59,842 nt of DNA, taken from IMG/VR virus record IMGVR_UViG_3300025132_000006, positions 1 through 59,842 of that record. One strand, given 5' to 3'. This document shows, piece after piece, positions 1 to 59,842 of this stretch (the stretch's first letter is position 1; each line of letters begins with the position of its first letter). Below the pieces are notes generated by a model. That model was not told the origin of the DNA and made no database searches. It saw nothing but the letters and a program-made list of their open reading frames with translations. A program made the position numbers and the translations under genes. This DNA comes from a virus (lineage: Duplodnaviria; Caudoviricetes).

Positions 1-99
1 GACTGGTAATGGCATGAGGATTCAAACTTCTGATAACGCTGATATAAAATTTAGCTCTGGTACTGGTGATACTATTTTTGATTATGCTGGTGCTGGGGG
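1..99 (+). repeat. Direct terminal repeat, left copy (assembly overlap marking a circular or circularly permuted genome)
   Basis: Bases 1-99 (gactggtaatggcatg...tgctggggg) are identical to 59744-59842. The repeat lies inside an ORF, and 99 is a common assembler k-mer length. Confidence 0.95.
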
Positions 100-3601: not shown

Positions 3602-6421
3602 ATGCCAAAGCAATCTTTAAAAGTAGGAAGCTTTCATAGCGGTCTAAATACTAAAGCTGACGCTAGAGATATAAAAGATGATGAGTTAGCTCTTTCTGAT
3701 AATATATCTGTAGATAAAGTAGGTAAAATAGTTATGGCAGGAAATTCTCCTGAGATAACTACTATTACTATAAATGCTTTGGGGGAAATTAATAAAGGAC
3801 ACGGTCTCTTTAGATTTAGTTCAGATTATAATGCTAGTGGTTCTTTTGTACCAACAGATTATATAATAGTTTGGGATGACGCAGAGGGAAAGTTTTATTG
3901 GTCGCCTGATGGAGGTAATTTTGCAGAGGCTATTGATTTATCTAGTACTTGGGGAAATTCTGAGAATTCGATACCTATTTTTTATTATGTAGATGGTGCT
4001 TTAAGGATTGTAGATTCTAGTTTTCCTGCTACTGCTAATCCATCAATTTGGTTTGGAGTTGTAGATAGACTTCTATTCCCAGATGCTACCCACCCTGATG
4101 CAAGTACTCCTGCTGATAATGACTTTTTACTCTCTGGTTGGAAAAAAGGTTTTTCTGAATTAAAAACACCTACCGCAGGTAAAATATCAACTACTATTCC
4201 AGCTAACTCAGCTGCCCTTGAAACTGATTCTGTCTATTGGCACGTTAGGAATATGAGAGATGAAACTGTTCAATTATATGATTTCCCTACGACTAATTTA
4301 ACTAGTGATTATTCTAACGAAAGTGTTTATAATTTATCTAAACCATATCAAAATGGATATGAAAATTGGCAAACAATTCATGGAATTAATGAAGGATATA
4401 AAGGTGGGACTGCTCATCAATTTGGAATTGCTCTATTTGAAGAAGATGATAAAGAATACTCTACAAATAGAAATTGGGTATTAAATGATTTTCCTTCGGC
4501 TAATACTGAAGATTTTAAATCTGGAAAGTCTGTATATTTAGCATTTAGATTGCCAACCCAATCTTCTAGAGAAACATGGCTTGGGAGTTATCAATTATTA
4601 CAATCTTCAAATTCATCTAGTTCAGCTACTATTAATATTTCAGATGCATCAATTATATTAAAAGATTCAGGAGCTTCTGATATGATTTCTTTTAAAATTG
4701 ATTCTACAAAATTTACAGACATTACAACACCTGTTGGTCAATGGCATATTGTTGAATTTCCTTATGATGATTATTATCATTTAACTAGAAGTGATACTAA
4801 TTTCTATATTGACCAATTTGTCTTATCAATGGATTATTCAATTGAGGTTGTTGGCACTACCCTTTCAACCTCTGGAGGTAATAGTAATAATAATGCGGGG
4901 TTTGTATTTTTAGAATTATCTGATTTAAGAATAGGTGATTCTGATTTAGTCGGAGTAGATACTGTTGGCAGGCATAAATTTTTTATGAGTCACACATATG
5001 ATGATAAAGAAAATGAAAGCTTGTTAAAAGACCTCGGTGAAATTGAATTAAGCAGAACAACTTCAGAGTATTTAATTGGAATTACTGCTTATCACAAAGA
5101 GCCTAGTGCTTCATTCAATCCTAGAATCACTGGTTCAAATCTTTATATAGAAGATGAAGGAGTTCCATATAGAATTGCTGAATTAAGATATTTAAGAGGT
5201 TTAAGGGGTTCGTGGGAACAAGAATTTCCATCATCTAGTAGATTTAGTATATTTGATACAAATAACGCTAAGAGTAATACGATTAAAAATAATGGACTTC
5301 CTTTATTAGAAAGTTATGAGGCTATGAATGGATATACTCCTGAAATAGAATCAATTACTGCTGATTTTAAAGCATCTACATTGTTAAATAGGAGAGTTTA
5401 CGCTGGGAATATAAAACAAAATGGTAAGATTTACGGTGATAGAATGATAAAGACCGTTACCAATAATTTTGATGCATTCCCATCCGTTGGTAGAGAAATA
5501 GATGTTGTTATAAATGATGGAGATGAAATTATAGCATTAGAAACATATGCTGATAGAATACTTCAATTTAAGAAAAATACTATGTATTTAATTAATGCTA
5601 CTAAATCAAGTGAATATTTAGAAGATACCTATCAAGGTAAAGGAATTGCAACTGATATGGCTGTTTCTAAGACAGATATGGGGATAACGTGGGCAAATAA
5701 GAATGGTTGTTATTTATATGATGGTCAAAAAGTATATAATATATCTGATGGATTAATAGATGACGATGAATGGTCTACTCATATAGGAATAGATACAGAT
5801 GTCATGTATTCTCCTTTAAATAATAAGATTATAGTTAGTGGTGGTACAAATGGTATAGATGTATTTGAATTTTCTTTACAAACTAAAGGATGGTCTAAAG
5901 CTAAAAGTAAAATTCAAGCAACGAAAACAAATTCTGTATTGGATGTAGATGATACAATAAAATATTTGACAACTGATAAAATATATAATTGGCTAGATAC
6001 TCCTTCTAGTGGGGTTATTCGTATTCTAACTAAAGATTTTGATTTTGGAAATCCTGCTCAGAGAAAGAAATGTTTTAAGTTTTATGTCACATATAAATCA
6101 AGTGCGGCATCAAATGTTATGGTTTATTATGGCACAAATGGACAAACTCTAACTGATGTTCAAACTGGGACTCCTCTTCCATGTGGAAAGCAAATGAAAG
6201 CTTCTAATTTTGCTGGAACAAGTACTAGTGGTTATTCAGTTACAAATGGATTAGCTACTACTGGAGGAGAATGGAAACAAGTAGAATTAAAACCATCAAC
6301 TTCTATTAATAATAAATATTCTGTTCAGTTACATTTTATTACTAAGGCATCTGAAACCACTCCATCTAGTTTTGAGATTAATGATATAACAATAATTTAT
6401 AGACCAAAACCACTTAAATAA
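3602..6421 (+). CDS. Tail nozzle/stabilisation protein (P22 gp10 / T7 gp12-like beta-propeller)
   Basis: N-terminal F.SGLNT..D.RDI...E motif typical of podovirus tail-tube-B proteins; beta-rich; C-terminal ILTKDFDFGNP..RK motif. Confidence 0.7.
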   Translation: MPKQSLKVGSFHSGLNTKADARDIKDDELALSDNISVDKVGKIVMAGNSPEITTITINALGEINKGHGLFRFSSDYNASGSFVPTDYIIVWDDAEGKFYWSPDGGNFAEAIDLSSTWGNSENSIPIFYYVDGALRIVDSSFPATANPSIWFGVVDRLLFPDATHPDASTPADNDFLLSGWKKGFSELKTPTAGKISTTIPANSAALETDSVYWHVRNMRDETVQLYDFPTTNLTSDYSNESVYNLSKPYQNGYENWQTIHGINEGYKGGTAHQFGIALFEEDDKEYSTNRNWVLNDFPSANTEDFKSGKSVYLAFRLPTQSSRETWLGSYQLLQSSNSSSSATINISDASIILKDSGASDMISFKIDSTKFTDITTPVGQWHIVEFPYDDYYHLTRSDTNFYIDQFVLSMDYSIEVVGTTLSTSGGNSNNNAGFVFLELSDLRIGDSDLVGVDTVGRHKFFMSHTYDDKENESLLKDLGEIELSRTTSEYLIGITAYHKEPSASFNPRITGSNLYIEDEGVPYRIAELRYLRGLRGSWEQEFPSSSRFSIFDTNNAKSNTIKNNGLPLLESYEAMNGYTPEIESITADFKASTLLNRRVYAGNIKQNGKIYGDRMIKTVTNNFDAFPSVGREIDVVINDGDEIIALETYADRILQFKKNTMYLINATKSSEYLEDTYQGKGIATDMAVSKTDMGITWANKNGCYLYDGQKVYNISDGLIDDDEWSTHIGIDTDVMYSPLNNKIIVSGGTNGIDVFEFSLQTKGWSKAKSKIQATKTNSVLDVDDTIKYLTTDKIYNWLDTPSSGVIRILTKDFDFGNPAQRKKCFKFYVTYKSSAASNVMVYYGTNGQTLTDVQTGTPLPCGKQMKASNFAGTSTSGYSVTNGLATTGGEWKQVELKPSTSINNKYSVQLHFITKASETTPSSFEINDITIIYRPKPLK

Positions 6422-9414
6422 TGTCTAAGAGAAGTCAAAGAAGAGCTAGGCATCAAAATGCAAGTCAAACAGGTATAGGAAGAGGTAATTTAGGTTCTTC
6501 TGATGGAAGAGTAGGCTCTCAAGAATTTAGAACTATAGCAGGTAAAGGTCTAGTCCATATGGTCAAAACTGAGACTGGATGGAAAGAAATGTCTAGTAGT
6601 CTTAGAGATACTACTAAGGGGAATACAACTGCTGATATATTAGCTGATTTAGTAGCTCCTGTTATAACTACTGCATCAAGTGGGGATGGAACTGGCACAA
6701 GTAATCATAGCGAGTTAGAAAGTCTAACTTCATCAGATGACCACACTCAATATGTTCATAACACTACTGTGAGAACTATAAGTGCTAATCATAATTTTAC
6801 AGGAAATCCAACATTTACAACTGGTACATTTACTGCTCCAGATATAAATGGGGGAACAATAGATGGTAGTACTATAGCTACTTCTAATATAACAGTAGGT
6901 AGTAGCAAGACATTAGATGTTCAAAATGGAACTTTAACATTAGGAGATAACCAAATAAGTGGAGATAAAGTAGAGGGAGGAACAATAGCAGCTACTACTA
7001 TTACTGCATTAACAACTGCAGGTATAACTGCTACTGCTAATATTGATATAGGAACTTTTGATTTAAGAGCTAATACACTTACTTCTGATATAGCAGATGG
7101 GACTTCTCCTCTTAATATAACTTCTACAACTGAAGTAACTAATTTAAATGCTGATTTGTGGGATGGGTATCAATTTAGTGACTATCTTAACCAAGCAGTT
7201 AAAACAGTTTCTACTCCTACATTTGCTTCAATAACAACTCCTACTATATTATCAGCTGGTGATATTACACTTAATCCAACAGGGAAAGATGTACTTCCGA
7301 ATAGCACTGTAGATATTGATTTAGGTGATTACAATAGAATGTGGAAAAGTTTATATGCTGCTGAACTTATTGTAGAAACATTAGTGGCTCAAGATGTGAT
7401 GGCTACTATTGGAGGTAGAATTATGGTAGCTCCGACTACTAAATTAATTTCAAATTTACAATCTAATGATACTGTAATAAATGTAGAACATAATAATATT
7501 AAAAATAAATATGTTATGTTAAAAACTGCTCCTTCAGGTGTTGCTCAAGTAGAGGTTATAAAAATAGAAAATTCTAATCCTACTTCGGTTACAGGTGGAT
7601 ATAGATATAATATACAATCAAGAAATTTAGATAATACAACTGCTAATGCTTGGCAAGAGGGAGATGCGGTATGTTCGTTAGGAGGCTCAGCTGGTGAAGG
7701 TTTTATAGATTTAACAAGTACATCTACTGTTCTTAATCACGCAGGTCCGACTATGGCTATATATTCTAGAACCGCAGCTACAAATTGGAATGATTTAAAA
7801 CCTACTGTTGCAGTCGGGCAATTGTCTAGTTTTGTTGATTATTCTAGTAATGATAAATTTGGAATCGCTATTGGAAATGATATTACATTAACTCCCACAA
7901 CTTCATTTAAGGGCTTAACTGCTGATAATACTAATGGCTTAAGAATGTTTAATACTCCTATTGAATTATATAATAGTACTGAAAAAAGAGTAAAAATAAC
8001 ATCTACAGGAACTGTGAAGATGGGAGAACATTTAGATAATACTGCGGGTAGTACAGAAAGTGCAAAATTCCATTGGGATGGTGCTGATTTAACTTTAACT
8101 GGTGCAATTACTGCTGATACAGGATATATAGGGGGAACATCAGGGTGGACAATATCATCTAGAAAATTGTATAACTCGTATCAAAATAATTATATAGGTC
8201 TTGTCCAACAAGGTTCTGCTAATGCAGATGTTGGAAGTCTTAGTGCTTTTTACGCTGGTGCTACATCAAGTACAGGTCAAAATGCAAAAATATCATTTGC
8301 TTCAGATGGAAAAATACGAGGCAATGGTATATATAGAAAGGATAATGTTGATTATCTTATAACGGCTTCAAGAATATTTGGTAATGGTAGTGATGGTGCT
8401 TTATCAACTAGTGGAACTATAAATTTAACTAGAGATAAGTATTATACATCTATTACTGTTGCGAATGGTCAAAATTTATATCTTAATCCACGAGGATTTA
8501 GAATATTTGTTAGAGACACTGTGACTCTTCTCGGAACTGGGAGACTTTATATTAGAAATAATGGAACAAATGGGGATAATGGAAGTCAAGGAGGTAATGA
8601 ATCTGGTGGAAGTGGAGGAAGCGGAGCAGGTATAGGTGGATTAGAAGGAAGTTTAAGAGGAGGAATTAATGGAGGAAATGGTGGAAATGGCGGAGGAGCT
8701 GGAATAGGTGCCGGAAATAGCGGGGGTTCAGGTAGTGCAGGTGCTAATGTTCCTGCCGTCAGTCCAGTTGTTAGAGAGTATTCCGTTTCTATTGGTAATG
8801 TTAATGATGGTGCAAAAGGAGGGGGTGGTCAAAATGGTGCTGCAGGCGCAGGGGGTACTGCAAATACACCAAATAATTCTAATACATCTTCTCAAGGTGC
8901 TATAAGTATTCAAAGTTCAGATTTAACCTTTATAATTGCAATGAGAGATATATTTGCCGTTGGAAATAATACTCCTTCTATTTATCCTGCCGCTGGTGCT
9001 TGCGGTGGAGGTGGTGGAGCAGGAGGTGGACCTGCTAGTAATGCATCTGGCGGGCAAGGTAAGTCTGGTGGCGGTGGAGGTCAAGGAGGAGGCTCAGGAG
9101 GTCACGTTATGTTATTAATGAGAGAATTTGTAGGGACACAAAGTCAATTATATTTAAGTGCAAATGGTGGTAATGGAGGTAATGGAGGTAGTCAAGGTAA
9201 TATAGGAAGTGGAGGAGCAGGGGGAAAAGGCGCAGGTGGTAATGGAGGCGATGGAGGATGTGTTACTGTTATATCTGGTCAAGATATTTCAGGTGCAACT
9301 ATAACTGTCACGAAAGGTTCAAAGGGGGCACCAGGCACCACAGGAAGCGCAGTAAATGAACCAGAGACTGCTTCTGATGGCTCAGATGGAACTATAATTA
9401 GAATTGAATGTTAG
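6421..9414 (+). CDS. Tail spike/fibre-like structural protein with glycine-rich C-terminal domain
   Basis: T/G/S/N-rich; FGNGSDG motif followed by GGNGGNGG-type tracts; located in the tail cluster. Confidence 0.65.
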   Translation: MSKRSQRRARHQNASQTGIGRGNLGSSDGRVGSQEFRTIAGKGLVHMVKTETGWKEMSSSLRDTTKGNTTADILADLVAPVITTASSGDGTGTSNHSELESLTSSDDHTQYVHNTTVRTISANHNFTGNPTFTTGTFTAPDINGGTIDGSTIATSNITVGSSKTLDVQNGTLTLGDNQISGDKVEGGTIAATTITALTTAGITATANIDIGTFDLRANTLTSDIADGTSPLNITSTTEVTNLNADLWDGYQFSDYLNQAVKTVSTPTFASITTPTILSAGDITLNPTGKDVLPNSTVDIDLGDYNRMWKSLYAAELIVETLVAQDVMATIGGRIMVAPTTKLISNLQSNDTVINVEHNNIKNKYVMLKTAPSGVAQVEVIKIENSNPTSVTGGYRYNIQSRNLDNTTANAWQEGDAVCSLGGSAGEGFIDLTSTSTVLNHAGPTMAIYSRTAATNWNDLKPTVAVGQLSSFVDYSSNDKFGIAIGNDITLTPTTSFKGLTADNTNGLRMFNTPIELYNSTEKRVKITSTGTVKMGEHLDNTAGSTESAKFHWDGADLTLTGAITADTGYIGGTSGWTISSRKLYNSYQNNYIGLVQQGSANADVGSLSAFYAGATSSTGQNAKISFASDGKIRGNGIYRKDNVDYLITASRIFGNGSDGALSTSGTINLTRDKYYTSITVANGQNLYLNPRGFRIFVRDTVTLLGTGRLYIRNNGTNGDNGSQGGNESGGSGGSGAGIGGLEGSLRGGINGGNGGNGGGAGIGAGNSGGSGSAGANVPAVSPVVREYSVSIGNVNDGAKGGGGQNGAAGAGGTANTPNNSNTSSQGAISIQSSDLTFIIAMRDIFAVGNNTPSIYPAAGACGGGGGAGGGPASNASGGQGKSGGGGGQGGGSGGHVMLLMREFVGTQSQLYLSANGGNGGNGGSQGNIGSGGAGGKGAGGNGGDGGCVTVISGQDISGATITVTKGSKGAPGTTGSAVNEPETASDGSDGTIIRIEC

Positions 9415-9472
9415 GGATTGGTTATGAAAAATATTATTATTAATAGTCTAAAAGCAGTAAATTAGGGTACTT

Positions 9473-10330
9473 ATGGCTTCATATGGTAAAATAGCACAAG
9501 CTCAAAAAAGAGTAGTAGACTCATCTTCTATGATTTCAGATAGAAGCAGTTTAATAGAGCATCAAGCTAAAATGGATAGTAATAGTGAAGTATTTGGCTA
9601 TGCTAATCAAATTTTATCTAGTTTAGGTACAGTGGCGGCTGGGTTTGATGCAAATAAAGAGTCATATCAAAATTTATCTACTGGTGCAACAGAGGCAGGT
9701 GTTGAGGGTATTAAAGAATGGGATGAGTTATCATTCGGAGATAAAACTAAAATAGGTTTTGGGTTAGGAAAAGATGCAACTGCAATTGAAGATTTAGACT
9801 CAACTTATTCAACAGATGAAGGTCATTTTAGCACAGCTAGTTTGATGGAAATAGGAAGAAAATCAAAAGCAGGTACTTTACAACCAAGCTTAGCAGGACC
9901 AGATGGTAAAAAACAGAGTGTTTGGAGTATATATGGACAAGATTCATCAGACGCAGACGGAACAATTATACCCGCAAGTGGTAAAGCACAATATTTAAAT
10001 AAAAATGATAACGAAAAATCTGATAGTAAAGGTTTTTTAGGGATTGGAGATGGAGTAAATCAAACTGGAAATCTTTTAAAAGCAGGCGGAGAAGCTATTA
10101 AAAATATGAGTGGTGAAGGAAGTTTACTTGAAAGTTTAGGGAAAACTGTCGGAGGTGCAACTAAGGCATTAGGCATTACAGATGATAAAGGATGGCTTCG
10201 GGGTACTAATAGTAAATGGGGATTTAAAGTTGGTGAGCATGTTGGTTTTGATAGAGATTCGAGTCCGTACAACCTTTCAAATATGTGGGATAACTATAAA
10301 AATAAAAAACAAGTAGCGTCAAATGATTAA
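9473..10330 (+). CDS. Putative internal virion (ejection) protein
   Basis: G/S/A/D-rich helical protein between tail genes and giant virion proteins; call is positional. Confidence 0.5.
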   Translation: MASYGKIAQAQKRVVDSSSMISDRSSLIEHQAKMDSNSEVFGYANQILSSLGTVAAGFDANKESYQNLSTGATEAGVEGIKEWDELSFGDKTKIGFGLGKDATAIEDLDSTYSTDEGHFSTASLMEIGRKSKAGTLQPSLAGPDGKKQSVWSIYGQDSSDADGTIIPASGKAQYLNKNDNEKSDSKGFLGIGDGVNQTGNLLKAGGEAIKNMSGEGSLLESLGKTVGGATKALGITDDKGWLRGTNSKWGFKVGEHVGFDRDSSPYNLSNMWDNYKNKKQVASND

Positions 10331-13245: not shown

Positions 13246-13247
13246 TA

Positions 13248-37764: not shown

Positions 37765-37769
37765 CGCCT

Positions 37770-37976: not shown

Positions 37977-37987
37977 AGATTAAATAG

Positions 37988-40212: not shown

Positions 40213-40315
40213 TTATGTTAAAAGAAAAAAAGGGAAAAAAACAAGACAAGGTTCTGGTCGAGGTACAAAAAAAAGTTATAAATCTTATAGAGGACAAGGA
40301 GGTCGTAAAAGATGA
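40196..40315 (+). CDS. 39-aa very basic micro-protein with YRGQG motif (not in ORF track)
   Basis: AAGGA RBS; MTQNANYVKRKKGKKTRQGSGRGTKKSYKSYRGQGGRKR; ATGA overlap with the next gene. Confidence 0.65.
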   Translation: MTQNANYVKRKKGKKTRQGSGRGTKKSYKSYRGQGGRKR

Positions 40316-40509
40316 TAAAACGTAAAGGTATTACAAAAGGTGAGATTGTAAAAGCAATTCAAGGATTAGTTAATCATACTCAAATAATGTCTTCTAGACT
40401 TGATGATATAGATAGAGTTGTTGGTGATTATATAACCTACAAAGGTGACATAAAAAAGTTTGGTGATTTTTTAGATGAAAAATATAAACCTAATGATGAA
40501 GAAGAATAA
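40312..40509 (+). CDS. Hypothetical protein
   Basis: AGGAGG RBS; coupled to terL. Confidence 0.65.
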   Translation: MIKRKGITKGEIVKAIQGLVNHTQIMSSRLDDIDRVVGDYITYKGDIKKFGDFLDEKYKPNDEEE

Positions 40510-47801: not shown

Positions 47802-50800
47802 ATGAAAATTTGGGAAAGAGTTAATAACATTACGGGCAACAATACAAAAGCTCGTTTTCTTGTTGAATATGTAAACGCAGGTGCTAAGTTTATACTAGCA
47901 GCCTTACCTGAGAAATTCTTATGGACTGTAGCTACAGAGACAGAAATCGTAGGTAGGGATTCTAGTGGAGTAAATAAAATAGGCAAGGGTTCTACTATTG
48001 CATATGATAAGATTTTAGCAGTATATAGATGGGATGGCACAGATGCCAATGGAAATCCTAAAAAAAGAGTAGCTGAAGAATCACCTGACAATAGTATACA
48101 TATATTTGATGAATCTAATAGTTTATTAAAAGCTACAAGCATATTTCCTAAGTTTTATAAGTTAGGAGGAAAGATTTTTATTAAACCAGACCCTGATTAT
48201 AATGATGGAGTTGGTACTTATACATATACAAAGTTAGGTGAGTCATCTACTACTACAGTTAATTCTGGGACTGGAGATAAAGGAGTAATAGTATATTCTG
48301 CTCCACCTATTATAGATGAAAATGATGATTCTTGGATATTAACTGAGTATGAAAATATTGCTATTTTTTATGCAGGGTCGTTAGACTTCTTAAGATTAAG
48401 TAGTGTATATAGAGATTTATGTAAAACAGAGATAGACGAAGTAGTTAGTGCAACAGGGTTATTAAAGAATTATAGAGATAAGGTTACTGCTTCTTCTTTT
48501 GACCCTACAAAAGCAACTGATGGTTCATCTACTATTAATATTCCTAATAAAGTACTCTCATTTAGTGTAGGCACTAGTTTACCTACATTTAGTTTTAGTG
48601 GTTCTCTTCCGTCTGATTTCGTTATTTCTTCATTATTACCTAGTAATATAACACTAACTAAAGAGCTTCCAAGTTTTTCAATAGCTGATTCTCTACCAAG
48701 TGATTTTAGTATAAGTGAAACTTTGCCAAGTAGTAATATTTCTGTTGGTTCTTCGTTACCTTCATTTTCATTTGTTGAAGCATTGCCATCTTCTTTTGTA
48801 AGTCCTTCAACTAGTCTACCTTCATTTAGTTTCTCAGGTAGTCTTCCAACTTCTATTAATGTATCTACATCTTTACCATCAGGTTCTTTTTCTAAATCAT
48901 TACCTAGTATATCGATAAATGCAGTTCCTCCAAGTGATATTAATGTAACAGAATCTCTTCCAACATTTAGTTTTACAAAAGAATTACCTTCAGAAATGGT
49001 AATAGGAGAATCTCTACCTGATGATATTGTTGTTTCATCTCCTTTACCATCTTTTAATGTAGCTTCTTCTCTTCCATCGGATTTTAATATAGAGTCTTCA
49101 TTACCTTCTAATTTTATAGTTTCAACATCTTTGCCTAGTGCTATTAATGTTGAGACTCCATTACCAAATGATTTTGCACCAGCTGAAACATTACCATCAG
49201 ATTTTAATATATCTCAAACTATTCCTACTTTTTCAGAACTTAGTCATAGTATGGTTCTATCTGGAGCCGATGACGCTATGGATAAGGCTGAGAAATTAAT
49301 AGATGGTAGTGAATTAAGTAATGAGATTGATAATGCTCAAGGATGGATAGACGATGAAGATGTTGAAATGGCTTCAGTTGTTATAAATACCGCGGCTCAA
49401 GAAATAAATAGAGCTTCAGCTTCTATTAACAAAGAAAAAACTAAATTAGAAGAATTTTCTACTAAAGTGAATCAAAAAGTAAATAAATATCAAAATGATA
49501 TAGCTAATTATAGTAATGAAGTCCAAAAAGAGCGTAATAGAATGCAATCTCAAATGGAAAAATATACTCAAGCAATTCAGAAGGAACAAGTAAGGGTTGG
49601 TTCTTCAATAGAAAAATATCAAGCAGAGTTACAAAAAGAATTTCAAAGAGTATCAAGTGAAACTCAAAAATATCAGAATGAGGTTCAAAAAGAAGCTGAA
49701 AGAGTTCAAATAGAACTAGGAAAGTATAAACAAGAAGTAGATAAAGAAACACAAAGAGTTAAAAATGGTCTTGAAAAACATCAAGCGGAAGTTACTAAAC
49801 AAGCTCAAAAGTCTAAAACTGAGGCTGATGCATATGGTGCAGAGCTTCAAAAAGAAACTCAAAAAGCAACATCAAAAATTAATAAATATCAACAAAATGT
49901 TTCTAAAGAGTCTCAAAGAGTCCAAACAGAAGTTTCTAAGTACTCTAATGAACTACAGAAAGAAGTTGCATCTTCTCAGAGACAAGCTGAAAAATATAAT
50001 CTACAATTACAAACAGAAATTAATAGAGTATCTTCTGGTTTAAATAAATTTCAACAAGAAATTGCTAAAGATATACAATCTTATCAAAAAGAAATAGAAG
50101 TTTACACTGCTGAGATACAAGGAGAGGCTGCTAAAGCAAATATAGATATAAATAACTATCAAGCTGAATTAGCTAAAGAAACTCAACGTCAAAACTCAGA
50201 ATTAGCTAAATATCAAGCTGATTTACAAAAATCTATACAAGTTTTTACTCTAGACCTTAATAAATATGCATCAGAGGTTCAAAAAGAATCTGCAAGATTA
50301 AATGCTGATGTATCAAGATATGCACAAGCTAATAATAAAGAAATTGCAAGATATAATGGTGAGTTGCAAAAGTATCAAGCAGATTTAGCAAAAGAAGTTC
50401 AATTATTTAATACTCAAGTTGCTTCTTATCAAGCTGATGTACAAAAGGAATCTTCTAGAGTTAGCTCTGGCGTAGCAAAATATAATTCTTCTCTTCAGAA
50501 AGAATCTCAAAGAGTTAGTATGGAAATAAATTCCTATCAAGCTGAATTAGGTAAAGAATCACAAAGAATTGGGACTGATGTACAAAAATATGGTGCAGAA
50601 GTTCAAAAAGAAACTCAGAAAATAAATTCAGGAATTGCCAAGTATCAAGCTGAGCTTCAGAAAGAAACTTCAGAATTTGGAACAAAGATTCAAAAGTTCA
50701 ATGCTGACCTTCAAAAAGAATCAACTAAATTACAAAAAGATATACAACAATTTACTCTTGATATAAATAATTATTCCAGTTTAATACAAGCTAAAAGCGG

Positions 50801-51023
50801 TAAGTTTCAACTAGATATGACAGAAGCTAATTCATATTTGCAGGAAGCAGGTACTAAAATACAAGCATCTCAATTATATGCACAAAAAAGTCAAGTTTCT
50901 ATTAGCTCATCTAGGGATTATTACCAGAGAGCAGTATCTGAATTATCAGCAATTACTGGTGCAGTAGTAGCTCCAGAACAACAACAAGCTAGTCAAAGAC
51001 GAGAGCAAGGGAAAACTTCATGA
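47802..51023 (+). CDS. Head-tail adaptor-like protein with a long repeat extension
   Basis: Adaptor-type N-terminal domain (FY..GGKIFI.P.P...IVY..PP...IFYA), 23 LP repeats and 23 18-aa helical repeats. Confidence 0.65.
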   Translation: MKIWERVNNITGNNTKARFLVEYVNAGAKFILAALPEKFLWTVATETEIVGRDSSGVNKIGKGSTIAYDKILAVYRWDGTDANGNPKKRVAEESPDNSIHIFDESNSLLKATSIFPKFYKLGGKIFIKPDPDYNDGVGTYTYTKLGESSTTTVNSGTGDKGVIVYSAPPIIDENDDSWILTEYENIAIFYAGSLDFLRLSSVYRDLCKTEIDEVVSATGLLKNYRDKVTASSFDPTKATDGSSTINIPNKVLSFSVGTSLPTFSFSGSLPSDFVISSLLPSNITLTKELPSFSIADSLPSDFSISETLPSSNISVGSSLPSFSFVEALPSSFVSPSTSLPSFSFSGSLPTSINVSTSLPSGSFSKSLPSISINAVPPSDINVTESLPTFSFTKELPSEMVIGESLPDDIVVSSPLPSFNVASSLPSDFNIESSLPSNFIVSTSLPSAINVETPLPNDFAPAETLPSDFNISQTIPTFSELSHSMVLSGADDAMDKAEKLIDGSELSNEIDNAQGWIDDEDVEMASVVINTAAQEINRASASINKEKTKLEEFSTKVNQKVNKYQNDIANYSNEVQKERNRMQSQMEKYTQAIQKEQVRVGSSIEKYQAELQKEFQRVSSETQKYQNEVQKEAERVQIELGKYKQEVDKETQRVKNGLEKHQAEVTKQAQKSKTEADAYGAELQKETQKATSKINKYQQNVSKESQRVQTEVSKYSNELQKEVASSQRQAEKYNLQLQTEINRVSSGLNKFQQEIAKDIQSYQKEIEVYTAEIQGEAAKANIDINNYQAELAKETQRQNSELAKYQADLQKSIQVFTLDLNKYASEVQKESARLNADVSRYAQANNKEIARYNGELQKYQADLAKEVQLFNTQVASYQADVQKESSRVSSGVAKYNSSLQKESQRVSMEINSYQAELGKESQRIGTDVQKYGAEVQKETQKINSGIAKYQAELQKETSEFGTKIQKFNADLQKESTKLQKDIQQFTLDINNYSSLIQAKSGKFQLDMTEANSYLQEAGTKIQASQLYAQKSQVSISSSRDYYQRAVSELSAITGAVVAPEQQQASQRREQGKTS
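48579..49250 (+). repeat. 23 degenerate 9-11-aa LP(S/T)xFxxxxS repeats
   Basis: Counted from LPTFSFSGS to IPTFSELSHS. Confidence 0.85.
49503..50744 (+). repeat. 23 consecutive 18-aa helical repeats (consensus about xKYQAELQKExQRVxxxI)
   Basis: From ANYSNEVQKERNRMQSQM to QKFNADLQKESTKLQKDI; 23 x 54 nt = 1242 nt. Confidence 0.9.
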
Positions 51024-51298
51024 CAATATTAGAAATTATGGAAAGAGCAAATTCTAGAGATACGAATCTTGTAATAGCTTTTGTAAAAGATGCAGTTATG
51101 AGGATACAATCTAACTCAGAAGAAAATTTAAAAGTTGCTAAACAAACTATTACTAAAAATACTAGAGATTATGACTTACCTACTGATTTAGTTGCTTTAA
51201 AAAGTGTTAGTATATTAGATACTGAAGATGATGATAAATATAAAAGAATTGCTAGATTAACAGGAGAACCTAACGTAACTGAGGATACAAATCCGTAA
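51020..51298 (+). CDS. Adaptor/tail-tube-A-like protein, N-terminal-type half
   Basis: MT..EI..R and Y.LP.D...L..V motifs. Confidence 0.6.
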   Translation: MTILEIMERANSRDTNLVIAFVKDAVMRIQSNSEENLKVAKQTITKNTRDYDLPTDLVALKSVSILDTEDDDKYKRIARLTGEPNVTEDTNP

Positions 51299-52870: not shown

Positions 52871-54060
52871 TGGCTATAACCGCTAAAGTAACAAATGCTA
52901 GTTCTACTAAAGCAGTAGGCACTCAAAATGCTACTAAAACTCAAGATAGTTTTAATGTAAAAGCAGGGGCAATTTCAGTTGATTTAACTGGTAGAATTTC
53001 TACTGCTAGAAATGTTAATGATGCTTTACAACTATTAGATGCAAGAACAGCGGCTCAAACATCTGCTCCAAATCCGATGACTGAGGGAGATATATGGTAT
53101 AAGACAGATACAGATGAATTATATATAAGAACAGATAGTACTTGGAATGAAATAGTAGTTAGTGGAGTTTCAGGTACAATTTATGGAGGAACTGACACAA
53201 CTCCTTTAAATAGGAACACAATTAAAAGGTCTGCTTATAATGCATCTAATGTTCCCTCAAATAATAGTATTTTAGCAGGTGAACTTAATTTTATACAAGG
53301 AAGCAAAAAGCTTTATATTGGAAGGGAAAATGATGGTACTGGGACTATTGAAGCTTATCATATCCCTCTAGCAACAGATTTATTACCTAATTCTACTAGT
53401 TTTACATTATCAGATAATAGTGGAAATGCAAACGATAATAGTCAAGTACTTGCATTGGCTAGTGGAGTCGCAGGTAATGGATTAAGTCTATCAAATCACG
53501 CTTTATCGGTAAATCCTGATAATGATAGTATTGAACTAAATAGTGATGCATTAAGAATTAAACCTTCAAAAGTTTTAGTAAATGTAAGTGATGGTAGCAA
53601 TTCCACGGGGATTACATTAGGAAATACTGCCACATTCTCAGGAACTGCAAATGAGACAACTGTAGCAGAGAATAACGGAACGATTACTGTTGGTCTGCCT
53701 GATAATGTTACAATACAAGGTAATTTAACTGTTGGTGGGACAACTACTACAATTAATTCATCTACTGTAACTATTGATGACCCTATCTTTACATTAGGGG
53801 GAGATACAAATCCCTCTTCGGATGACAATAAGGACAGAGGAATAGAATTTAAATGGCATAATGGTAGCTCTCATAAATTAGGTTTTTTTGGAATGGATGA
53901 TAGTGATGGAAAATTTAAGTATATACCAGATGCTACAAATAGTAGTGAAGTATTCTCAGGTTCTGTTGGTAGTGCAGTATTCAACGATGTAGCAATATCA
54001 ACAATTAATGGAAACGCAGTATTTGATAGTAACTCAACTGTGGATGGTGGGACTTTCTAA
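52870..54060 (+). CDS. Tail fibre/collar protein
   Basis: GDIWY.TDT..LYI, GELNF...KLYIG, GNLTVGGTTTTINS..VTIDDPI.TLG and DRGIEF motifs; ends VDGGTF. Confidence 0.8.
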   Translation: MAITAKVTNASSTKAVGTQNATKTQDSFNVKAGAISVDLTGRISTARNVNDALQLLDARTAAQTSAPNPMTEGDIWYKTDTDELYIRTDSTWNEIVVSGVSGTIYGGTDTTPLNRNTIKRSAYNASNVPSNNSILAGELNFIQGSKKLYIGRENDGTGTIEAYHIPLATDLLPNSTSFTLSDNSGNANDNSQVLALASGVAGNGLSLSNHALSVNPDNDSIELNSDALRIKPSKVLVNVSDGSNSTGITLGNTATFSGTANETTVAENNGTITVGLPDNVTIQGNLTVGGTTTTINSSTVTIDDPIFTLGGDTNPSSDDNKDRGIEFKWHNGSSHKLGFFGMDDSDGKFKYIPDATNSSEVFSGSVGSAVFNDVAISTINGNAVFDSNSTVDGGTF

Positions 54061-57000
54061 TGGCTAATACTATTAAAATTAAAAGAAGTGGAACTTCTGG
54101 AGATTCTCCAACTTCAGGAGAACTACAACATGGTGAATTAGGGATTAATTATGCAGATGGTAAATTATTCTTTAAAAACTCTAGTAATGTAGTACAAGAA
54201 TTATTAACAAGTCCAGGTACTTCAAATGGGCAATTATTATTTGCTAATTCTAGTAGTAATTTTGAAGGGGATAGTAATTTATTTTGGGATAACACGAATA
54301 AAAGACTTGGTATAGGTACAGCCTCTCCCACAGAAAAACTTCATGTAGAAGGAGCAATACAACAAACTAAGATAAAAATTTATAATAGTGGTAATAGTGG
54401 TAATATAGAACAGACTGGTGCTTTTGGTGGTGGAACAATGTTTTTTAAACAACTTGGTTCTAACCACGATATAAGATTTCAAACCAATAAAGCTGGTTCA
54501 ACTACAACTGCTTTAGCTATTGATGGTTTAACACATAATATTGGTATAGGGACAGAATCGCCTAGCTTGTCCTATGGTGGCGGTTTGCATATAAAAAATG
54601 CAAGTAATGTAGCAAATTTAAAAGTTAGTAGTGGTAGCTCAACTGGGTTTGATTTATGGCAAGATACTGGCGGTAATGCTTATGTAATTAATCACGATAA
54701 TGCTGGGATATTATTTAAGACTAATGGTGGAGATAGGCTTTATATTAAAAGTGATGGCGATGTTGGTATTGGTACATCCTCTCCGACAAAAGGGAAATTA
54801 GAAGTTTATGGTAATGGAGCAGATACTACATTAGCAATACATGAAGATGGAGGAAGTCATAAAGCACAATTACACCTTAGAAGTGGTGGCAATGATGTAA
54901 AATTACATACAAGTGCATCTGATAGTAAATTTTATATAGATACAGAAAATGTATCAAAAGCATTTACTATAGCAACTGATGGAAAGACTGGCATAGGCAC
55001 AGACTCTCCTACTCATGGGAAACTACAAGTAAATCCAGGTTCAAATAGTACTACTGGTCTTGCAATATGGGGTGCAAATGATGGTATAAAAATTCAAAGA
55101 GCTAATGGTTCTAATGACGGAGCGTTTGGTCACATTACTTTTACAACTAATGATTGGATTCACCTAAAAACATATTCAGAAACCAAAGGTATTGGTGCAG
55201 ATATAATTGGTGGAGCTAACAGCGGTATCAATCCAGCTAACAATTACATTCACTTTAGTGGCTATGATAAAATATTTAGTCGTGTAGGCACTACTCAGTT
55301 GACAATGGGCAATGGTAAAGTTTATTTTGAAAATGTTAATGTCGGCATAAATACATCTTCTCCTACTCTTAGTAAATTACAAATAAATACATCCTCTAGC
55401 ACAAGAGGATTAGTAATAAATGCTACTGATAGCAATGCTTCTTACATGCAGTTTTCAAATTCAACAACTGGAACTGGTACAAGTCAAGGACTTCAAGTGG
55501 GTTTACAAGTAGATGAATCTGCTTTTATAGACTTAAAGTATTCAAGCCATTTAGCAATTAAGACATCTGGTGCTGAAAGAATGAGAATTACTTCAACAGG
55601 AAGCGTCGGTATCGGTACAACCTCACCAACAACAATACACCATGTTCACAATTCAGGAGCAACTACTGGTTGGACACATTATACAAATTCAAGTACTGGA
55701 ACGACTGGGAATGATGGTACTCATATAGGTACTAATGGAGTACACGCTTATTTATGGAATAGAGAAGCTGGTGATATTTATTTTGGAACTCAAGCTACTA
55801 CAAGAATGCTTGTTCAAAGTGGTGGTAATGTTGGAATTGGCACAACTTCGCCTAGTAATACGCTCCATGTTAATGGAACTGTTAGAGTTGACAGTTTATT
55901 ATCTTTTAGTGGCAATAGTTATATACAAGATGTAAGTAATAATTATTTAAAGCTAAGAATAGCTAATGGAGATTATTTTGCTATTCATGGTGGTGCATCT
56001 GATGCAGAATATATGAGAGTTGCTAACGATGGTAAAGTCGGCATCGGAACAGACTCTCCTGTTGCTAATTTACATATTTATAAGGATACTACTACTAATA
56101 ACGACAAGTTATTTAGAATATATAATGGCAGTGGATTGCAGTGGGAAATACAAGGCGATGGTAGCATGAGTGGCTATCTTGGTAATCCTATAGATAGTGT
56201 TACAATGATTAGAGGTCCATGGCAAACTGATTTATCAGTATCAGGTGGTAGTGCTAGTAGTGAAGCTGCTGCTGGTAATGTAGTTTTTAAAACAAATGAT
56301 GTTGAAAAAATGAGGCTTACTAAGACTGGACTACTCGGTATTGGTACATCCTCGCCTCAAGAAAAATTAGATATTTCTGCTGGTAATATAAGATTAGATA
56401 ATCAGCAACTTTTGACATTCGCAACTACAGATGCTAATAGTGGAAGAGTAGCTATTCAAGGCGATGAAGGAAGTGACTTTTTAAGATTTAGAACTGATAA
56501 TGCTAATAGAATGGCAATTACGAATACTGGTGTTGGTATTGGGACAATTTCTCCTAGTGTACCTCTTCACATTTCAACAACAAGTACAAATCCACTTTTA
56601 TTAGAAAATACTACTCAAGATGCTAGTGGCGGTGCAATACTAAATAAAATTTCTTTTAAACACAACGCTACATTAAATACAAGTTTAGAACATGGTTCGA
56701 TTGGCTACTATGCTGGTGAAACATGGGATGATACAAAATTTTATCAAACAATAAATAACGGAAATAGCGCACAAGTTGTAGCTGAAAATGTTCGTGGTAA
56801 TACTTGGAAATGGTATACTGGCGGAACTTCAAGAATGGTTATTGATTCGTCAGGCAAGGTCGGTCTAGGCACAGCCTCGCCTACTGCACCATTGCATATT
56901 AAAACAGCAATGTCTACTAACACAAACACAGATGCTTTAAAAGTAGAAGGTAATTATTTACTTGCAATATTAGGTGGAGATGACGCTCTATATAACGCTG

Positions 57001-59842
57001 GTAAATTAGAATTATATCAAGATGGTAGTACAAAAAATGTTCATTTAAGTGGAACTGCAAGTGATTCTTACCCAAGTTATATTTTAGGTCGTCTTGGCAT
57101 CGGCACATCCTCGCCTCTGCAAAAATTACATGTAAATGGCATTATACAAACTCAATATGAACTAAGGTCGTCAAGTGGTAATGGACTATACCTTCAAGCA
57201 TTAGGCTCAAGTGGAGGATTTACACATAGGTTTCAAGATAATGGAACTGATAGAGTAACTATGAGCGGTGATGGAATACAACTTCCATTAAAAGCTAGTG
57301 ACACTAGTCACAAATTAAAATTTACTGCTTCAACATCTGCTGAAATATATGCAACTGGGTATGGAGATTTAAATTTAATTGGTGGGTTAAGTAATGCTAT
57401 TAAATCTAGAGATAGTACAATTTTTGGCGATTCAGCTAATGCTAGAAGAGTCTATATTAACCATCAAACTACTGATAATAGTTCAGTTAGAAATATTCTT
57501 AGTACTATGCCAAAATTTTCTATGTATAGTGGGACTAGTGGGCATTTTGGATTTTATACTTATGGAAGTAGTGGTGCTTATAATGCTATTACAAATGTAC
57601 ATACTGATAACAATACTAGTGGATTAAAATTAAATTATAGAACTGGTGGTAATGATACTGAAGCAATGGAAATTGGTAGTGATGGTAAAATTAATATTGG
57701 TAATTCAACTGTAACTGCTTCAGGTGGTGTTGCTCAGACTGCAAGTCTTCGTGCAAAAGGTATAGATATTGATGAGCTAGTTTTTTCAGGAGGTTCTCCT
57801 AGATATGCTAATCATGTATGGAAGTCTAATAGTTCTGACCCCAATACTTTAGATTTGGTTGGCAGAACATTTGGTGGGTCTACAATCACTTATGGTAAAA
57901 TGATACTTGGTCAAAATGCTTCTGATTTACATCAGATATTTGGTCTTGGTGGTTCTAATGTAGGCATAGGAACTGAAACTCCTAGTGCTAATACAAAGCT
58001 TGATGCATCAGGTCCAATACAAGCTCCTTCTTTTTATATAGGTGCTAATCCATATCATGGAGTAATAAAACATATAGCCAATGGCAATATTGAACATCAT
58101 CCAAGAGCTAGTTATGATATAAACTTTGTAATGGGTACTAATAATGCTTTTACTGTTAGTACTTCTTCATTGCAAAATGGAGCAGATGGCATTGGTAACA
58201 CATCAAAAAATTTAGGTGGACTGCCAGTTCGTATTTATTCTAGTGAACCTTCTTTTATTATTGATGGACATGTTACTGCTGACCAATACTGGGGAACAAG
58301 GTCTGGCGGTACTAATGAAAAATTAATGAGTATGCAGATGAGCAACGACCAAAAGATGAGTTGGAAAGCATGGAATGATAATGGTACTGTAAAATATGAT
58401 GATATGCTTCTTCTTGATGGTGGTACTGGTAAAGTTGGGATTGGAACAGATTCTCCTAGTGCTACTGTAACTATGAAAGGCAGTAATTCTAATCTGTTAC
58501 ATTTTGACCCAGCTAATGCCTCTATTTATAGTAGTACTGCTGGTATTTATATAAGCGGAAATAATGGAAATTCTGCGTTAATTGTTGGTAGTAGTGGTGC
58601 AACTCCTACATTACAAGCCAATAGTGGTGGTAATATCGGAGTGCTTTCTAATCTTGGTATTGGAACAACCTCACCTGCAAAAGCACTTCATGTTTCTCAA
58701 ACTGGAACTGGAGATTTAGCAAGATTTGAATCAACTGGAGAGAGCTTTAGCATTCAGATGTTAGCTGATGATTCAGGTACACCAGTTAATTACCAATTGA
58801 CACATACTGGTGACAAGTTTGTTCATTATAATAATGGTAATGTTGTTCACTCTAGTTTAAAGACTGGAGAGGTTGGCATAGGTACAGCCTCGCCTAGTGC
58901 TAAGCTTGATGTTGCTGGAGATGCAAATATTGACACAAAACTATGGTTAGGTAATACTCATACTGGTGGTCAAACTTGGGCTAGTATGGGTAATAAAGGT
59001 AATGAGTTAGTAATTGATGGTGGTGCAGATTCAGGTATGACAATAGTAACTGGGACATCAAACGCTGGTTATATTAACCATAACAATTATAATAATGGTA
59101 ACTATCAACATATAAAATTTGATGCGGCTAATGCTGGAATATTTTTTAAAACTGCGGGAACACTTGAAACTGCAGTTATAGATAACAATACTTCTTTTTC
59201 TTTTAATAGAGCAACTGTAGTTGATAATAATTTTTTAGGACATATAGAATTTAAAGGCAATAATGGAACTGAAACGCATACTTATTCCAAGATTTCTGCA
59301 CAATGTTTAAACTTTGAAGATGGTGCTGAATATTCAGATGTAAAAATATATGGTTCAAATGGTAGTAATGGTCTTGAAGAAATAGCCAAGTTTTATGCTA
59401 GACAATTTCTTATGACTAATAGTGGTTCAAAGGTTGGTATCCGAACAGCATCTCCTAGTACTGCTCTTCATGTGGCTAGTGGTGCTATAAGATTAGATAG
59501 TAGTCAGCAATTACAATTTGGTGGTGCTTCTACTCACATTGATGGCGATAGTGGGCATATGTCTTTTGATGTTAATTCAGCATTAAGACTAAAAATTGAT
59601 TCTGTAGGGCGAGTTGGAATTGGGACTGGTTCACCTAATTATAAATTAGATATTATTCATGATGCAGATGAACAATTTAGAGTAGGTAGGTCAGGTGGTA
59701 AATATGTAGCTATCAGAGATGATGTAATGCAGTTTACTGGTATGACTGGTAATGGCATGAGGATTCAAACTTCTGATAACGCTGATATAAAATTTAGCTC
59801 TGGTACTGGTGATACTATTTTTGATTATGCTGGTGCTGGGGG
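54060..59842 (+). CDS. Giant modular tail fibre, 5' part (continues across the origin to 1561; ~2414 aa in total)
   Basis: ATG at 54060 overlaps the upstream TAA and translates MANTIKIKRSGTSGDSPTSGELQHGELGINYADGKLFFK (common tail-fibre N-terminus). It is absent from the ORF track, consistent with no stop before the window end. Position 59757 (= position 14) is in frame (5697/3 = 1899 codons). It carries repeated (K/N)VGIGTxSP..KLHV motifs. Confidence 0.9.
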   Translation, partial: MANTIKIKRSGTSGDSPTSGELQHGELGINYADGKLFFKNSSNVVQELLTSPGTSNGQLLFANSSSNFEGDSNLFWDNTNKRLGIGTASPTEKLHVEGAIQQTKIKIYNSGNSGNIEQTGAFGGGTMFFKQLGSNHDIRFQTNKAGSTTTALAIDGLTHNIGIGTESPSLSYGGGLHIKNASNVANLKVSSGSSTGFDLWQDTGGNAYVINHDNAGILFKTNGGDRLYIKSDGDVGIGTSSPTKGKLEVYGNGADTTLAIHEDGGSHKAQLHLRSGGNDVKLHTSASDSKFYIDTENVSKAFTIATDGKTGIGTDSPTHGKLQVNPGSNSTTGLAIWGANDGIKIQRANGSNDGAFGHITFTTNDWIHLKTYSETKGIGADIIGGANSGINPANNYIHFSGYDKIFSRVGTTQLTMGNGKVYFENVNVGINTSSPTLSKLQINTSSSTRGLVINATDSNASYMQFSNSTTGTGTSQGLQVGLQVDESAFIDLKYSSHLAIKTSGAERMRITSTGSVGIGTTSPTTIHHVHNSGATTGWTHYTNSSTGTTGNDGTHIGTNGVHAYLWNREAGDIYFGTQATTRMLVQSGGNVGIGTTSPSNTLHVNGTVRVDSLLSFSGNSYIQDVSNNYLKLRIANGDYFAIHGGASDAEYMRVANDGKVGIGTDSPVANLHIYKDTTTNNDKLFRIYNGSGLQWEIQGDGSMSGYLGNPIDSVTMIRGPWQTDLSVSGGSASSEAAAGNVVFKTNDVEKMRLTKTGLLGIGTSSPQEKLDISAGNIRLDNQQLLTFATTDANSGRVAIQGDEGSDFLRFRTDNANRMAITNTGVGIGTISPSVPLHISTTSTNPLLLENTTQDASGGAILNKISFKHNATLNTSLEHGSIGYYAGETWDDTKFYQTINNGNSAQVVAENVRGNTWKWYTGGTSRMVIDSSGKVGLGTASPTAPLHIKTAMSTNTNTDALKVEGNYLLAILGGDDALYNAGKLELYQDGSTKNVHLSGTASDSYPSYILGRLGIGTSSPLQKLHVNGIIQTQYELRSSSGNGLYLQALGSSGGFTHRFQDNGTDRVTMSGDGIQLPLKASDTSHKLKFTASTSAEIYATGYGDLNLIGGLSNAIKSRDSTIFGDSANARRVYINHQTTDNSSVRNILSTMPKFSMYSGTSGHFGFYTYGSSGAYNAITNVHTDNNTSGLKLNYRTGGNDTEAMEIGSDGKINIGNSTVTASGGVAQTASLRAKGIDIDELVFSGGSPRYANHVWKSNSSDPNTLDLVGRTFGGSTITYGKMILGQNASDLHQIFGLGGSNVGIGTETPSANTKLDASGPIQAPSFYIGANPYHGVIKHIANGNIEHHPRASYDINFVMGTNNAFTVSTSSLQNGADGIGNTSKNLGGLPVRIYSSEPSFIIDGHVTADQYWGTRSGGTNEKLMSMQMSNDQKMSWKAWNDNGTVKYDDMLLLDGGTGKVGIGTDSPSATVTMKGSNSNLLHFDPANASIYSSTAGIYISGNNGNSALIVGSSGATPTLQANSGGNIGVLSNLGIGTTSPAKALHVSQTGTGDLARFESTGESFSIQMLADDSGTPVNYQLTHTGDKFVHYNNGNVVHSSLKTGEVGIGTASPSAKLDVAGDANIDTKLWLGNTHTGGQTWASMGNKGNELVIDGGADSGMTIVTGTSNAGYINHNNYNNGNYQHIKFDAANAGIFFKTAGTLETAVIDNNTSFSFNRATVVDNNFLGHIEFKGNNGTETHTYSKISAQCLNFEDGAEYSDVKIYGSNGSNGLEEIAKFYARQFLMTNSGSKVGIRTASPSTALHVASGAIRLDSSQQLQFGGASTHIDGDSGHMSFDVNSALRLKIDSVGRVGIGTGSPNYKLDIIHDADEQFRVGRSGGKYVAIRDDVMQFTGMTGNGMRIQTSDNADIKFSSGTGDTIFDYAGAG
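59744..59842 (+). repeat. Direct terminal repeat, right copy
   Basis: Identical to 1-99. Confidence 0.95.

Follow-up and report, generated by a model that had tools for sequence, protein, structure and literature searches.

A predicted giant two-barrel RNA polymerase in a closed marine phage genome with no recognisable DNA polymerase

What becomes of replication in a phage that appears to bring its own transcription enzyme into the cell and to encode no enzyme for DNA synthesis? The question is raised by a DNA stretch of 59,842 nucleotides (IMG/VR record IMGVR_UViG_3300025132_000006, positions 1 to 59,842; hereafter the window), in which a first-pass annotation had seen a virion RNA polymerase (RNAP), an SU10-type capsid and a short list of replication genes, in a complete genome devoid of DNA polymerase, primase and integrase. 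The reading reached here, which we regard as probable, is that the window represents in full the genome of a lytic marine phage, uncultured and of podovirus type, with a head remotely like that of SU10, an RNAP of the type of phi14:2 gp66 and QDE-1, accessory replication genes only, and replication that depends on its host.

The claim that the genome is complete and closed by a 99-bp overlap is borne out. Positions 1–99 carry the same letters as 59744–59842 (99/99 nt, 100% identity), which closes the assembly, the IMG/VR entry is recorded with direct terminal repeats, and its CheckV completeness is 100. This exact terminal identity sets the genome unit at 59,743 bp. Of the four relatives found through the major capsid protein (MCP), designated G001–G004 with the window as G000, three are rated 100% complete, at 59,737, 60,018 and 61,102 bp, and one 80%. 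The window has a G+C content of 33.1% and is laid out in two gene arms, a plus-strand arm of about 47 kb that starts at 37689, crosses the junction and ends at 25429 and a minus-strand arm of 12 kb running from 37600 to 25595, with a GC skew that changes sign in step with the arms. No tRNA genes and no Rfam families were found in the window.

The largest gene of the late, structural arm (13248–22427, plus strand) occupies 15% of the genome and encodes a protein of 3059 residues that has no match in Pfam, PHROGs or NCBIfam, nor among Protein Data Bank (PDB) sequences by phmmer. This open reading frame (ORF) contains exactly one DxDxD site, at residue 2256, in the context '...VRQPRNQAGD...ADADFDLDK...'. 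The catalytic-type motif D-A-D-F-D-L-D-K spans residues 2256–2263 (20013–20036), and its four aspartates and its lysine are invariant in 37 homologs; positions invariant across that alignment are R580, P582, D588, D617, D619, D621, D623 and K624 in the numbering of the core. Eight other related proteins, of about 2000–3080 residues, were found in a set of 5.8 billion proteins, and an exhaustive search of 1.84 billion representatives yields 78 family members at E ≤0.001, the full-length ones all of about 3000 residues. No crAss enzyme could be recognised among these 78, whose library entries are nameless.

An AlphaFold model of the folded polymerase core (residues 1640–2760, positions 18165–21527) has a mean predicted local distance difference test (pLDDT) score of 78.5 and a predicted template-modelling score (pTM) of 0.76. 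In a Foldseek search of the PDB it gives a single match at E ≤0.001, which is 6vr4_A, the virion RNAP of phi14:2 (E 1.8e-07, probability 1.00), followed by QDE-1 chains at E of about 0.01 and then by the largest subunits of cellular RNAPs. A VIA search of 48,161 chains returns RNA polymerases in all of rows 1–18, among them QDE-1 (Z 10.2, root-mean-square deviation (rmsd) 5.0, 452 residues aligned), 6vr4 (Z 9.8, rmsd 5.2, 633 aligned), RDR2 (Z 9.6, rmsd 5.2, 415 aligned) and P74 gp62 (Z 8.8, rmsd 4.8, 383 aligned). The alignment to 6vr4 sets model residues 3–978 against chain residues 886–1864, a segment that holds the connector (1095–1238), the DFDID motif (1361–1365), the bridge helix and the trigger loop of gp66, as given in the available text of 10.1101/2020.03.07.982082. 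According to the same text, the fourth position of DFDxD is I or V in crAss-like enzymes and Gly in all other polymerases. That position is L in the window, L or F in 10/11 aligned sequences and F in most relatives. The ortholog in G002 (L059; record positions 7166–16474, minus strand), a protein of 3102 residues matched by the family hidden Markov model (HMM) at E 2.4e-19, has DNDGD at residue number 2256, with the canonical Gly, against DFDLD in the window; thus, both types of motif occur inside one phage group. The phage-encoded RNAP first proposed on the basis of sequence is therefore upheld by one invariant DxDxD site and by a predicted core fold that matches both 6vr4 and QDE-1. On this model, the core of the 3059-residue protein very likely belongs with the single-chain two-barrel RNA polymerases of the phi14:2-gp66/QDE-1 type, with RNA synthesis as its predicted activity.

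The position of the gene suggests when and where such an enzyme would act. It closes the co-directional structural arm of about 47 kb, next to other large ORFs, and the structural module of phi14:2 likewise ends with the gene for gp66, which was detected in virions by mass spectrometry according to its record annotation. By analogy with this arrangement, the giant RNAP is probably packaged in the virion and ejected. The enzyme would be produced late, packed into the particle and ejected with the DNA, and would then transcribe the first genes of the 12-kb early arm on the opposite strand; transcription of later genes would fall to the host polymerase, which is the course demonstrated for phi14:2. 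A Pfam scan, which covered all 112 ORFs of at least 60 residues (60 called and 52 further), found no second polymerase or sigma factor to serve the early genes.

The 3' end of the RNAP gene is overlapped by an ORF of 1004 residues (22415–25429, plus strand), 43% identical to its counterpart in G004 and 25% to that in G002, which is analogous by position to gp65 of phi14:2, annotated as 'RNA polymerase associated protein'. The available text of 10.1101/2020.03.07.982082 describes a zincin domain with an HExxH motif in gp65, and this motif is absent from every large late ORF of the window. Like the giant RNAP, gp66 and gp65 of phi14:2 are without a Pfam match. As for the sequences from which transcription might start, a k-mer search of the intergenic regions of the window gave AT-rich words only, and a sigma-70-type scan of 25000–40600 gave 72 sites where 81.4 were expected. 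The early arm is headed by a gene-poor stretch of 873 bp (36020–36892) in which no ORF is convincing and for which G001–G004 have no nucleotide match; repeats within 35900–37750 are short and unconvincing. Two short exact-match contigs from a run guessed to be RNA-Seq fall at 36244–36566, and a third such contig falls on the ParB-like gene. This stretch might serve as an origin, contain a cluster of promoters or give rise to a non-coding early transcript.

The genes recognised for replication and recombination all lie in the minus-strand arm. The helicase is a DnaB-type replicative enzyme of 441 residues (26250–27575) matched by DnaB_C (PF03796, E 2.6e-42) and DnaB_N (PF00772, E 1.1e-09); it scores 198 bits in NCBIfam, under the equivalog cut-off of 385, has no primase domain, and finds its best phage matches scattered at about 27% identity. 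It is preceded in coordinate order by a Holliday-junction resolvase (25595–26056; phrog_1770, E 1.3e-25) and followed by a D12-class (Dam-type) N6-adenine DNA methyltransferase (27562–28404) and by a DUF932 protein (28404–29171), a conserved early gene whose profile gives only a chance match against the PDB (E 0.44). Farther along are a single-stranded DNA-binding protein (SSB; 30838–31410), a Sak single-strand annealing protein (31931–32503; E 1e-53) and a PD-(D/E)XK or Cas4-like exonuclease recognised by HMM matches (32799–33563). The segment 33859–35681 encodes an HTH_39 winged-helix protein and a ParB-like protein, both recognised by HMM matches, along with an ORF of 200 residues that falls only in virus-only, nameless clusters of the ESM Atlas. 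These three proteins are candidate regulators or initiators, and scans with Pfam, PHROG and NCBIfam found no recognisable origin-binding protein or helicase loader. The replication set listed in the first-pass annotation is thus confirmed, by HMMs for DnaB, Sak, exonuclease and resolvase and by fold and tip for the SSB; the list had omitted the Dam methylase and the DUF932, ParB-like and HTH_39 proteins.

The SSB, a protein of 190 residues with an OB fold (oligonucleotide/oligosaccharide-binding fold), is identified by its predicted structure and its C-terminal tip. Across 23 sequences, P189 and F190 are invariant and V188 is present in at least 90%, with acidic residues preceding them (...D-V-P-F). 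The model has a pLDDT of 82.6, and Foldseek matches it to PrgE of pCF10 (E 4e-04) and to many bacterial SSBs at a probability of about 0.9 to 1.00; in the VIA search PrgE is aligned over 114 residues with Z 9.1 and rmsd 6.5. In the ESM Atlas the nearest named family is DUF669, present in just 14% of one cluster. The model and the tip confirm the predicted assignment of the product as an OB-fold SSB with an acidic tip of bacterial type. In bacteria, primase, repair proteins and the chi subunit all attach to the Pro-Phe tip of SSB, and DnaG is bound by the N-terminal domain of DnaB. The phage would load its own helicase and SSB, through which host primase and DNA polymerase III would be recruited, and would then switch to recombination-dependent replication, as in SPP1 and lambdoid phages. 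We infer from this gene set that the host replisome is used.

The scan of the 112 ORFs gave no polymerase, primase, integrase or recombinase match. Six-frame searches of the window and the four MCP relatives found PolA, PolB, Prim-Pol, DnaG_N, Zn_ribbon_DnaG, Phage_integrase and phrog_16345 in 0/5 records each, with control genomes positive in every family search. The initial failure to recognise a polymerase, primase or integrase is confirmed by both results.

A comparison with other genomes that encode this RNAP shows how general the plan is. Among the 54 IMG/VR contigs encoding the RNAP family, the 20 of at least 48 kb were surveyed, 16 of them at least 90% complete. SU10_MCP is over its cut-off in 20/20 of these long records and DnaB_C is found in 19/20, while PolA is over its cut-off in 0/20 (one match of 9.7 bits, E 0.008) and PolB, DnaG_N and Prim-Pol are each found in 0/20. 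The ORFs bearing DnaB_C are 564–638 residues long unless cut by a contig end, and in 6/6 sampled helicase ORFs they are primase-helicase fusions with phrog_16345 at the N terminus (E 1e-18 to 4e-24) and, in 2/6, a weak Pfam DNA_primase_S match. In six frames, phrog_16345 is found in 17/20 records and in 15/16 of those at least 90% complete; in 2/3 of the misses the helicase lies at a contig end. The plan of the clade, as judged from sequence, would thus combine an ejected-type RNAP, an SU10-type head, no DNA polymerase and a primase-helicase. Since the fusion is present in 17/20 records, the plan of the lineage is 'no DNA polymerase' rather than 'no primase', which weakens the earlier interpretation, and primase loss is a trait of a sub-lineage. 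A plain DnaB occurs in the window, G002 and G004, at a mutual identity of 65–79%. This sub-lineage would have exchanged the primase-helicase fusion for a DnaB of cellular type and so become fully dependent on host priming. The 16/20 long records that are at least 90% complete measure 49.6–61 kb, apart from one of 82.9 kb. The latter, G006 (locus L088; 82,923 bp), is the only RNAP-bearing record well above 61 kb and has DnaB_C at both 12–425 and 54572–55018; rather than a larger phage, this record is probably a concatemer assembled from a genome of about 54.5 kb.

Several results weigh against the reading set out so far. No sequence homology to gp66 was detected when the family profile was aligned with gp66 by hhalign (probability 1%, E 0.054), the TM-score to 6vr4 is only 0.26, and a VIA Z of about 10 modestly exceeds the tool's stated background of 7–8. 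Because no sequence-level link was detected, kinship with gp66 rests on predicted fold and a short motif; a fold match to gp66 and QDE-1 combined with a null result in hhalign makes this a distinct sequence family within the gp66/QDE-1 structural class. The RNAP is not universal among near relatives either, since no ORF in G001 or G003, genomes of about 60 kb with an MCP 53–54% identical, matches the RNAP HMM. No shared promoter-like motif was found in the RNAP-bearing G000, G002 and G004, which have only AT-rich k-mers in common. The ORF assigned to the SSB was missed by all HMM libraries, and no SSB family was found in it with Pfam even at E up to 10. The structure models cover the RNAP core (residues 1640–2760) and the SSB; the search for a hidden enzyme was one by sequence for the DUF932 protein, the early ORFs of 131 and 200 residues, five large late ORFs and the first 1600 residues of the RNAP. 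As to how unusual the plan is, replication without a phage polymerase is common and has precedent even alongside a virion polymerase, as far as the available texts of the papers cited below go.

These results bear on three other explanations. The phage might possess its own priming or polymerising enzyme, hidden in unannotated ORFs (the DUF932 protein, the early proteins of 131 and 200 residues, the late ones of 939, 997, 456 and 1004 residues) or within the giant protein, in its N-terminal part of some 1600 residues. Of the 60 called ORFs, about half are without an informative family match, and most relatives with this RNAP carry a primase domain; moreover, the RNAP and the SSB themselves escaped every HMM library, which means that profile searches do miss real enzymes in this genome. 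Against this stand the sizes and positions of the candidates. The early-arm ORFs besides DnaB (441 residues) are at most 280 residues long, too small for a replicative polymerase of family A, B or C, and the large unannotated ORFs sit in the structural arm. The primase profile that catches 17/20 relatives finds nothing in six frames in G000, G002 and G004, the 200-residue ORF belongs to a virus-only family without a named relative, and the DUF932 profile has no solved relative. A hidden enzyme is in our judgement unlikely, and host dependence remains the preferred reading. A different doubt concerns the giant protein itself, which could be a two-barrel polymerase that is not ejected, either a late RNAP that acts inside the cell and is no virion component or an enzyme that makes primers or copies RNA templates. 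The VIA search scores gp66 no better than QDE-1 and RDR2, both of them RNA-dependent or dual in activity, and non-virion two-barrel phage polymerases exist in P23-45 gp64 and P74 gp62. Yet the gene is the closing part of a structural arm of about 47 kb, in a position like that of the gene for the virion-detected gp66 in phi14:2, the protein's length of 3059 residues with some 1600 at the N terminus resembles that of virion polymerases fused to large domains (available text of PMC10770324), and no second polymerase or sigma factor was found for the early genes. We give this alternative little credence, slightly less than the hidden enzyme, and retain packaging and ejection as the probable fate of the protein.

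The polymerase-less plan could, in the last place, be an artefact of an incomplete or chimeric assembly, or the mark of a prophage or plasmid-like element. The record has a metagenomic source and includes a ParB-like gene, and two relatives were found in bins of metagenome-assembled genomes (MAGs). This explanation is highly improbable in view of the exact 99-bp closure and the CheckV value of 100, the agreement of independent relative assemblies on 59.7–61.1 kb, the 16/20 long RNAP-bearing records that are at least 90% complete, the contigs 99–100% identical in three other marine studies, and the lack of an integrase or recombinase; as to the bins, the MAG labels conflict, and one MAG contig is a whole phage-sized contig of 47 kb. 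A complete genome of a lytic phage that would rely on the host replisome thus remains the better account.

The plus-strand arm also encodes the head and tail proteins. A small terminase (38178–38945) and a large terminase (TerL; 40509–42077; phrog_38, E 5e-71) are followed by a P22-like portal (42939–45200; E 1.4e-44), an MCP of 509 residues (46189–47718) and a head-tail adaptor of SU10 type (51020–51298). The MCP belongs to the SU10_MCP family (E 1.2e-19, 71.4 bits against a cut-off of 24.1), which is its sole Pfam match at E ≤0.01; set against the 292-position profile, it shows a large insertion. The SU10_adaptor score of 27.8 bits is marginal against its cut-off of 27. On these two matches, the SU10-type capsid that had been proposed is sustained. 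An M15 endolysin is also encoded in this arm. Between the MCP and the adaptor lies a coiled-coil protein of 1073 residues (47802–51023), whose gene contains a 46-nt repeat eight times at spacings that are multiples of 54 nt (49472–50564) and of which relatives keep the ends only; it may be a head fibre, a decoration or an internal protein. The tail-fibre gene crosses the junction (54060–59842 into 1–1561) and encodes 14 copies of a GIGT..SP...LHV-type repeat with a unit of 48 nt. Upstream of the RNAP gene, 3602–13245 holds six unannotated late ORFs of 939, 997, 285, 182, 456 and 334 residues, which presumably encode tail and internal or ejected proteins. A phmmer search of the PDB gave nothing significant for the MCP, the portal or the ORFs of 1004, 939 and 997 residues.

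Two variations were observed among the relatives. The terminase genes of the window are separated by an insert (38945–40024, plus strand) encoding a metallophosphoesterase of 359 residues with an N-terminal Cys-rich zinc ribbon and the motifs GDPHVDD, GNHD and GHTH, which matches phrog_7339 ('DNA repair exonuclease') and is missing in all four MCP relatives. In the two relatives without an RNAP match, G001 (L056–L058) and G003 (L062–L065), there is no DnaB homolog by tblastn, and other giant ORFs are present, of 3015 and 3272 residues in the former and of 2139, 1774 and 1476 residues in the latter. This suggests that a large ejected-protein module is swapped between close head lineages.

All evidence on habitat is marine. 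The tail-fibre matches are marine in 62/62 cases (Synechococcus 50, Pelagibacter 6, cyanophage 4, Roseobacter 2), with pelagiphages ranking first; the sequencing runs listed come from marine or seawater metagenomes in 10/10 cases; and the short contigs from three other marine studies are 99–100% identical to the early arm. The fibre matches, a DUF932 homolog labelled Pelagibacterales and the 33% G+C give a weak lead to a SAR11 host. Contigs of this phage type also occur in MAGs labelled Dehalococcoidia (L071, 47 kb) and Roseobacter (L072, 7 kb). These labels were rejected as host evidence since they disagree with each other and look like binning noise; the two contigs are likely binning contamination, able to mislead host prediction.

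The cases of particle-borne single-chain two-barrel polymerases documented so far come from crAss-like phages and, as tape-measure fusions, from Thermus phages. What would be new here is a marine clade of about 50–60 kb with a different capsid family and a gp66-like enzyme of about 3000 residues. The strategy would then be either far older than Crassvirales or carried by an RNAP module that moves between head lineages. A bolder proposal, which we offer as a long shot, is that the gp66-type RNAP is a module common to, or exchanged between, unrelated head lineages and that in this marine clade it also primes phage DNA replication. If true, priming by the RNAP would explain the discarding of the primase-helicase for a plain DnaB, with only the host DNA polymerase still needed. 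In either case, the clade would join maximal independence in transcription to minimal independence in replication, making it a natural case in which to study the benefit of carrying an RNAP. The 78 representative sequences and the confident model provide a basis for biochemistry of the enzyme, and the invariant bacterial-type tip of the SSB is a handle on the recruitment of the host replisome.

Comparison with known phages places this lineage apart. The MCP has 0 matches at E 1e-5 among 50,697 deposited phage records, and TerL matches 247 of them, all at less than 60% identity and at 22–25% in the best 25 of the 247. The MCP of phi14:2, the sole crassvirus compared, belongs to Crass_capsid (PF23898, E 8.4e-200), whereas that of the window is of the SU10_MCP family. 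By BLASTP against that phage the best E values are 0.066 for the MCP, 2.7 for the portal and 1.2 for TerL, none a similarity, and tblastn of the 60 window proteins against its loci gives a single match of 42 residues. The same search against bases 1–50000 of SU10 gives 0 matches at E ≤0.01. As far as sequence comparison reaches, these results support a phage lineage that stands apart from Crassvirales and far from every deposited phage, in line with the separate lineage first suspected, and a head module that appears to have a remote tie at most to the SU10/Kuravirus group and to be unrelated to crAss-like phages. No description of this marine lineage was found in the literature searched.

The RNAP and the head point to different known systems. 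With phi14:2 gp66 (PDB 6VR4) the giant RNAP shares a predicted single chain of great length, two double-psi beta-barrels and a DFDxD motif with a hydrophobic fourth residue; it differs in having 3059 residues instead of 2180 and a motif extended to D-x-D-F-D-x-D-K. The genomes differ as well, that of phi14:2 being 100.4 kb against 59.7 kb here, with another capsid family, and there is no DNA polymerase or primase in the window. With SU10 and Kuravirus (Gordonclarkvirinae) the window shares the order TerL-portal-scaffold-MCP-tail-internal proteins, a large last ORF and a convergent early arm, whereas SU10 has 77.3 kb and, where the window phage has the giant RNAP, is annotated with a DNA polymerase and an ECF (extracytoplasmic function) sigma factor. 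Gp96 of Thermus phage P23-45, in the available text of PMC10770324, is likewise a two-barrel virion RNAP outside Crassvirales that is fused to a large virion protein (VIA Z 7.1), but it is part of the tape measure of a siphovirus, is flat in architecture and lacks a clamp, and matches less well in structure than gp66 and QDE-1. The available part of that paper describes 23 two-barrel polymerase families along with this virion enzyme, and the RNAP family of the window may already be among them; the accessible supplements make no mention of 'marine', 'uncultured' or 'Pelagibacter'.

In its way of replicating, the phage recalls SPP1 and the lambdoid phages, whose modules of helicase, SSB, annealase, exonuclease and resolvase leave synthesis to host primase and DNA polymerase III. 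The functional set is the same (helicase, SSB, annealing protein, 5'-3' exonuclease and resolvase), but those phages use host RNA polymerase from the start. The closest precedent for the combination of traits comes from the crAss-like phages themselves. The first-pass annotation had held that these typically encode their own DNA polymerase and primase, which is too strict: the accessible text of PMC7886860 and PMC11054128 describes epsilon-group phages (e.g., crAssE-Sib) with a virion RNAP but no phage DNA polymerase. More broadly, the available text of PMC11348598 states that a DNA polymerase is encoded by over half of duplodnaviruses, while almost all replication genes are missing from some. 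The plan called unusual at the outset thus stands as a gene set, while its novelty is tempered by the polymerase-less epsilon phages and by the primase-helicase of 17/20 clade members. The epsilon phages, compared here by published description, resemble the window phage in joining a virion RNAP to a missing DNA polymerase, and differ in their Crassvirales head genes, their gut habitat and the DNA primase that they retain; some carry repressor or anti-repressor genes (available text of PMC11054128). The window phage is set apart from them by its SU10-type capsid, its marine origin and its lack of a recognisable primase.

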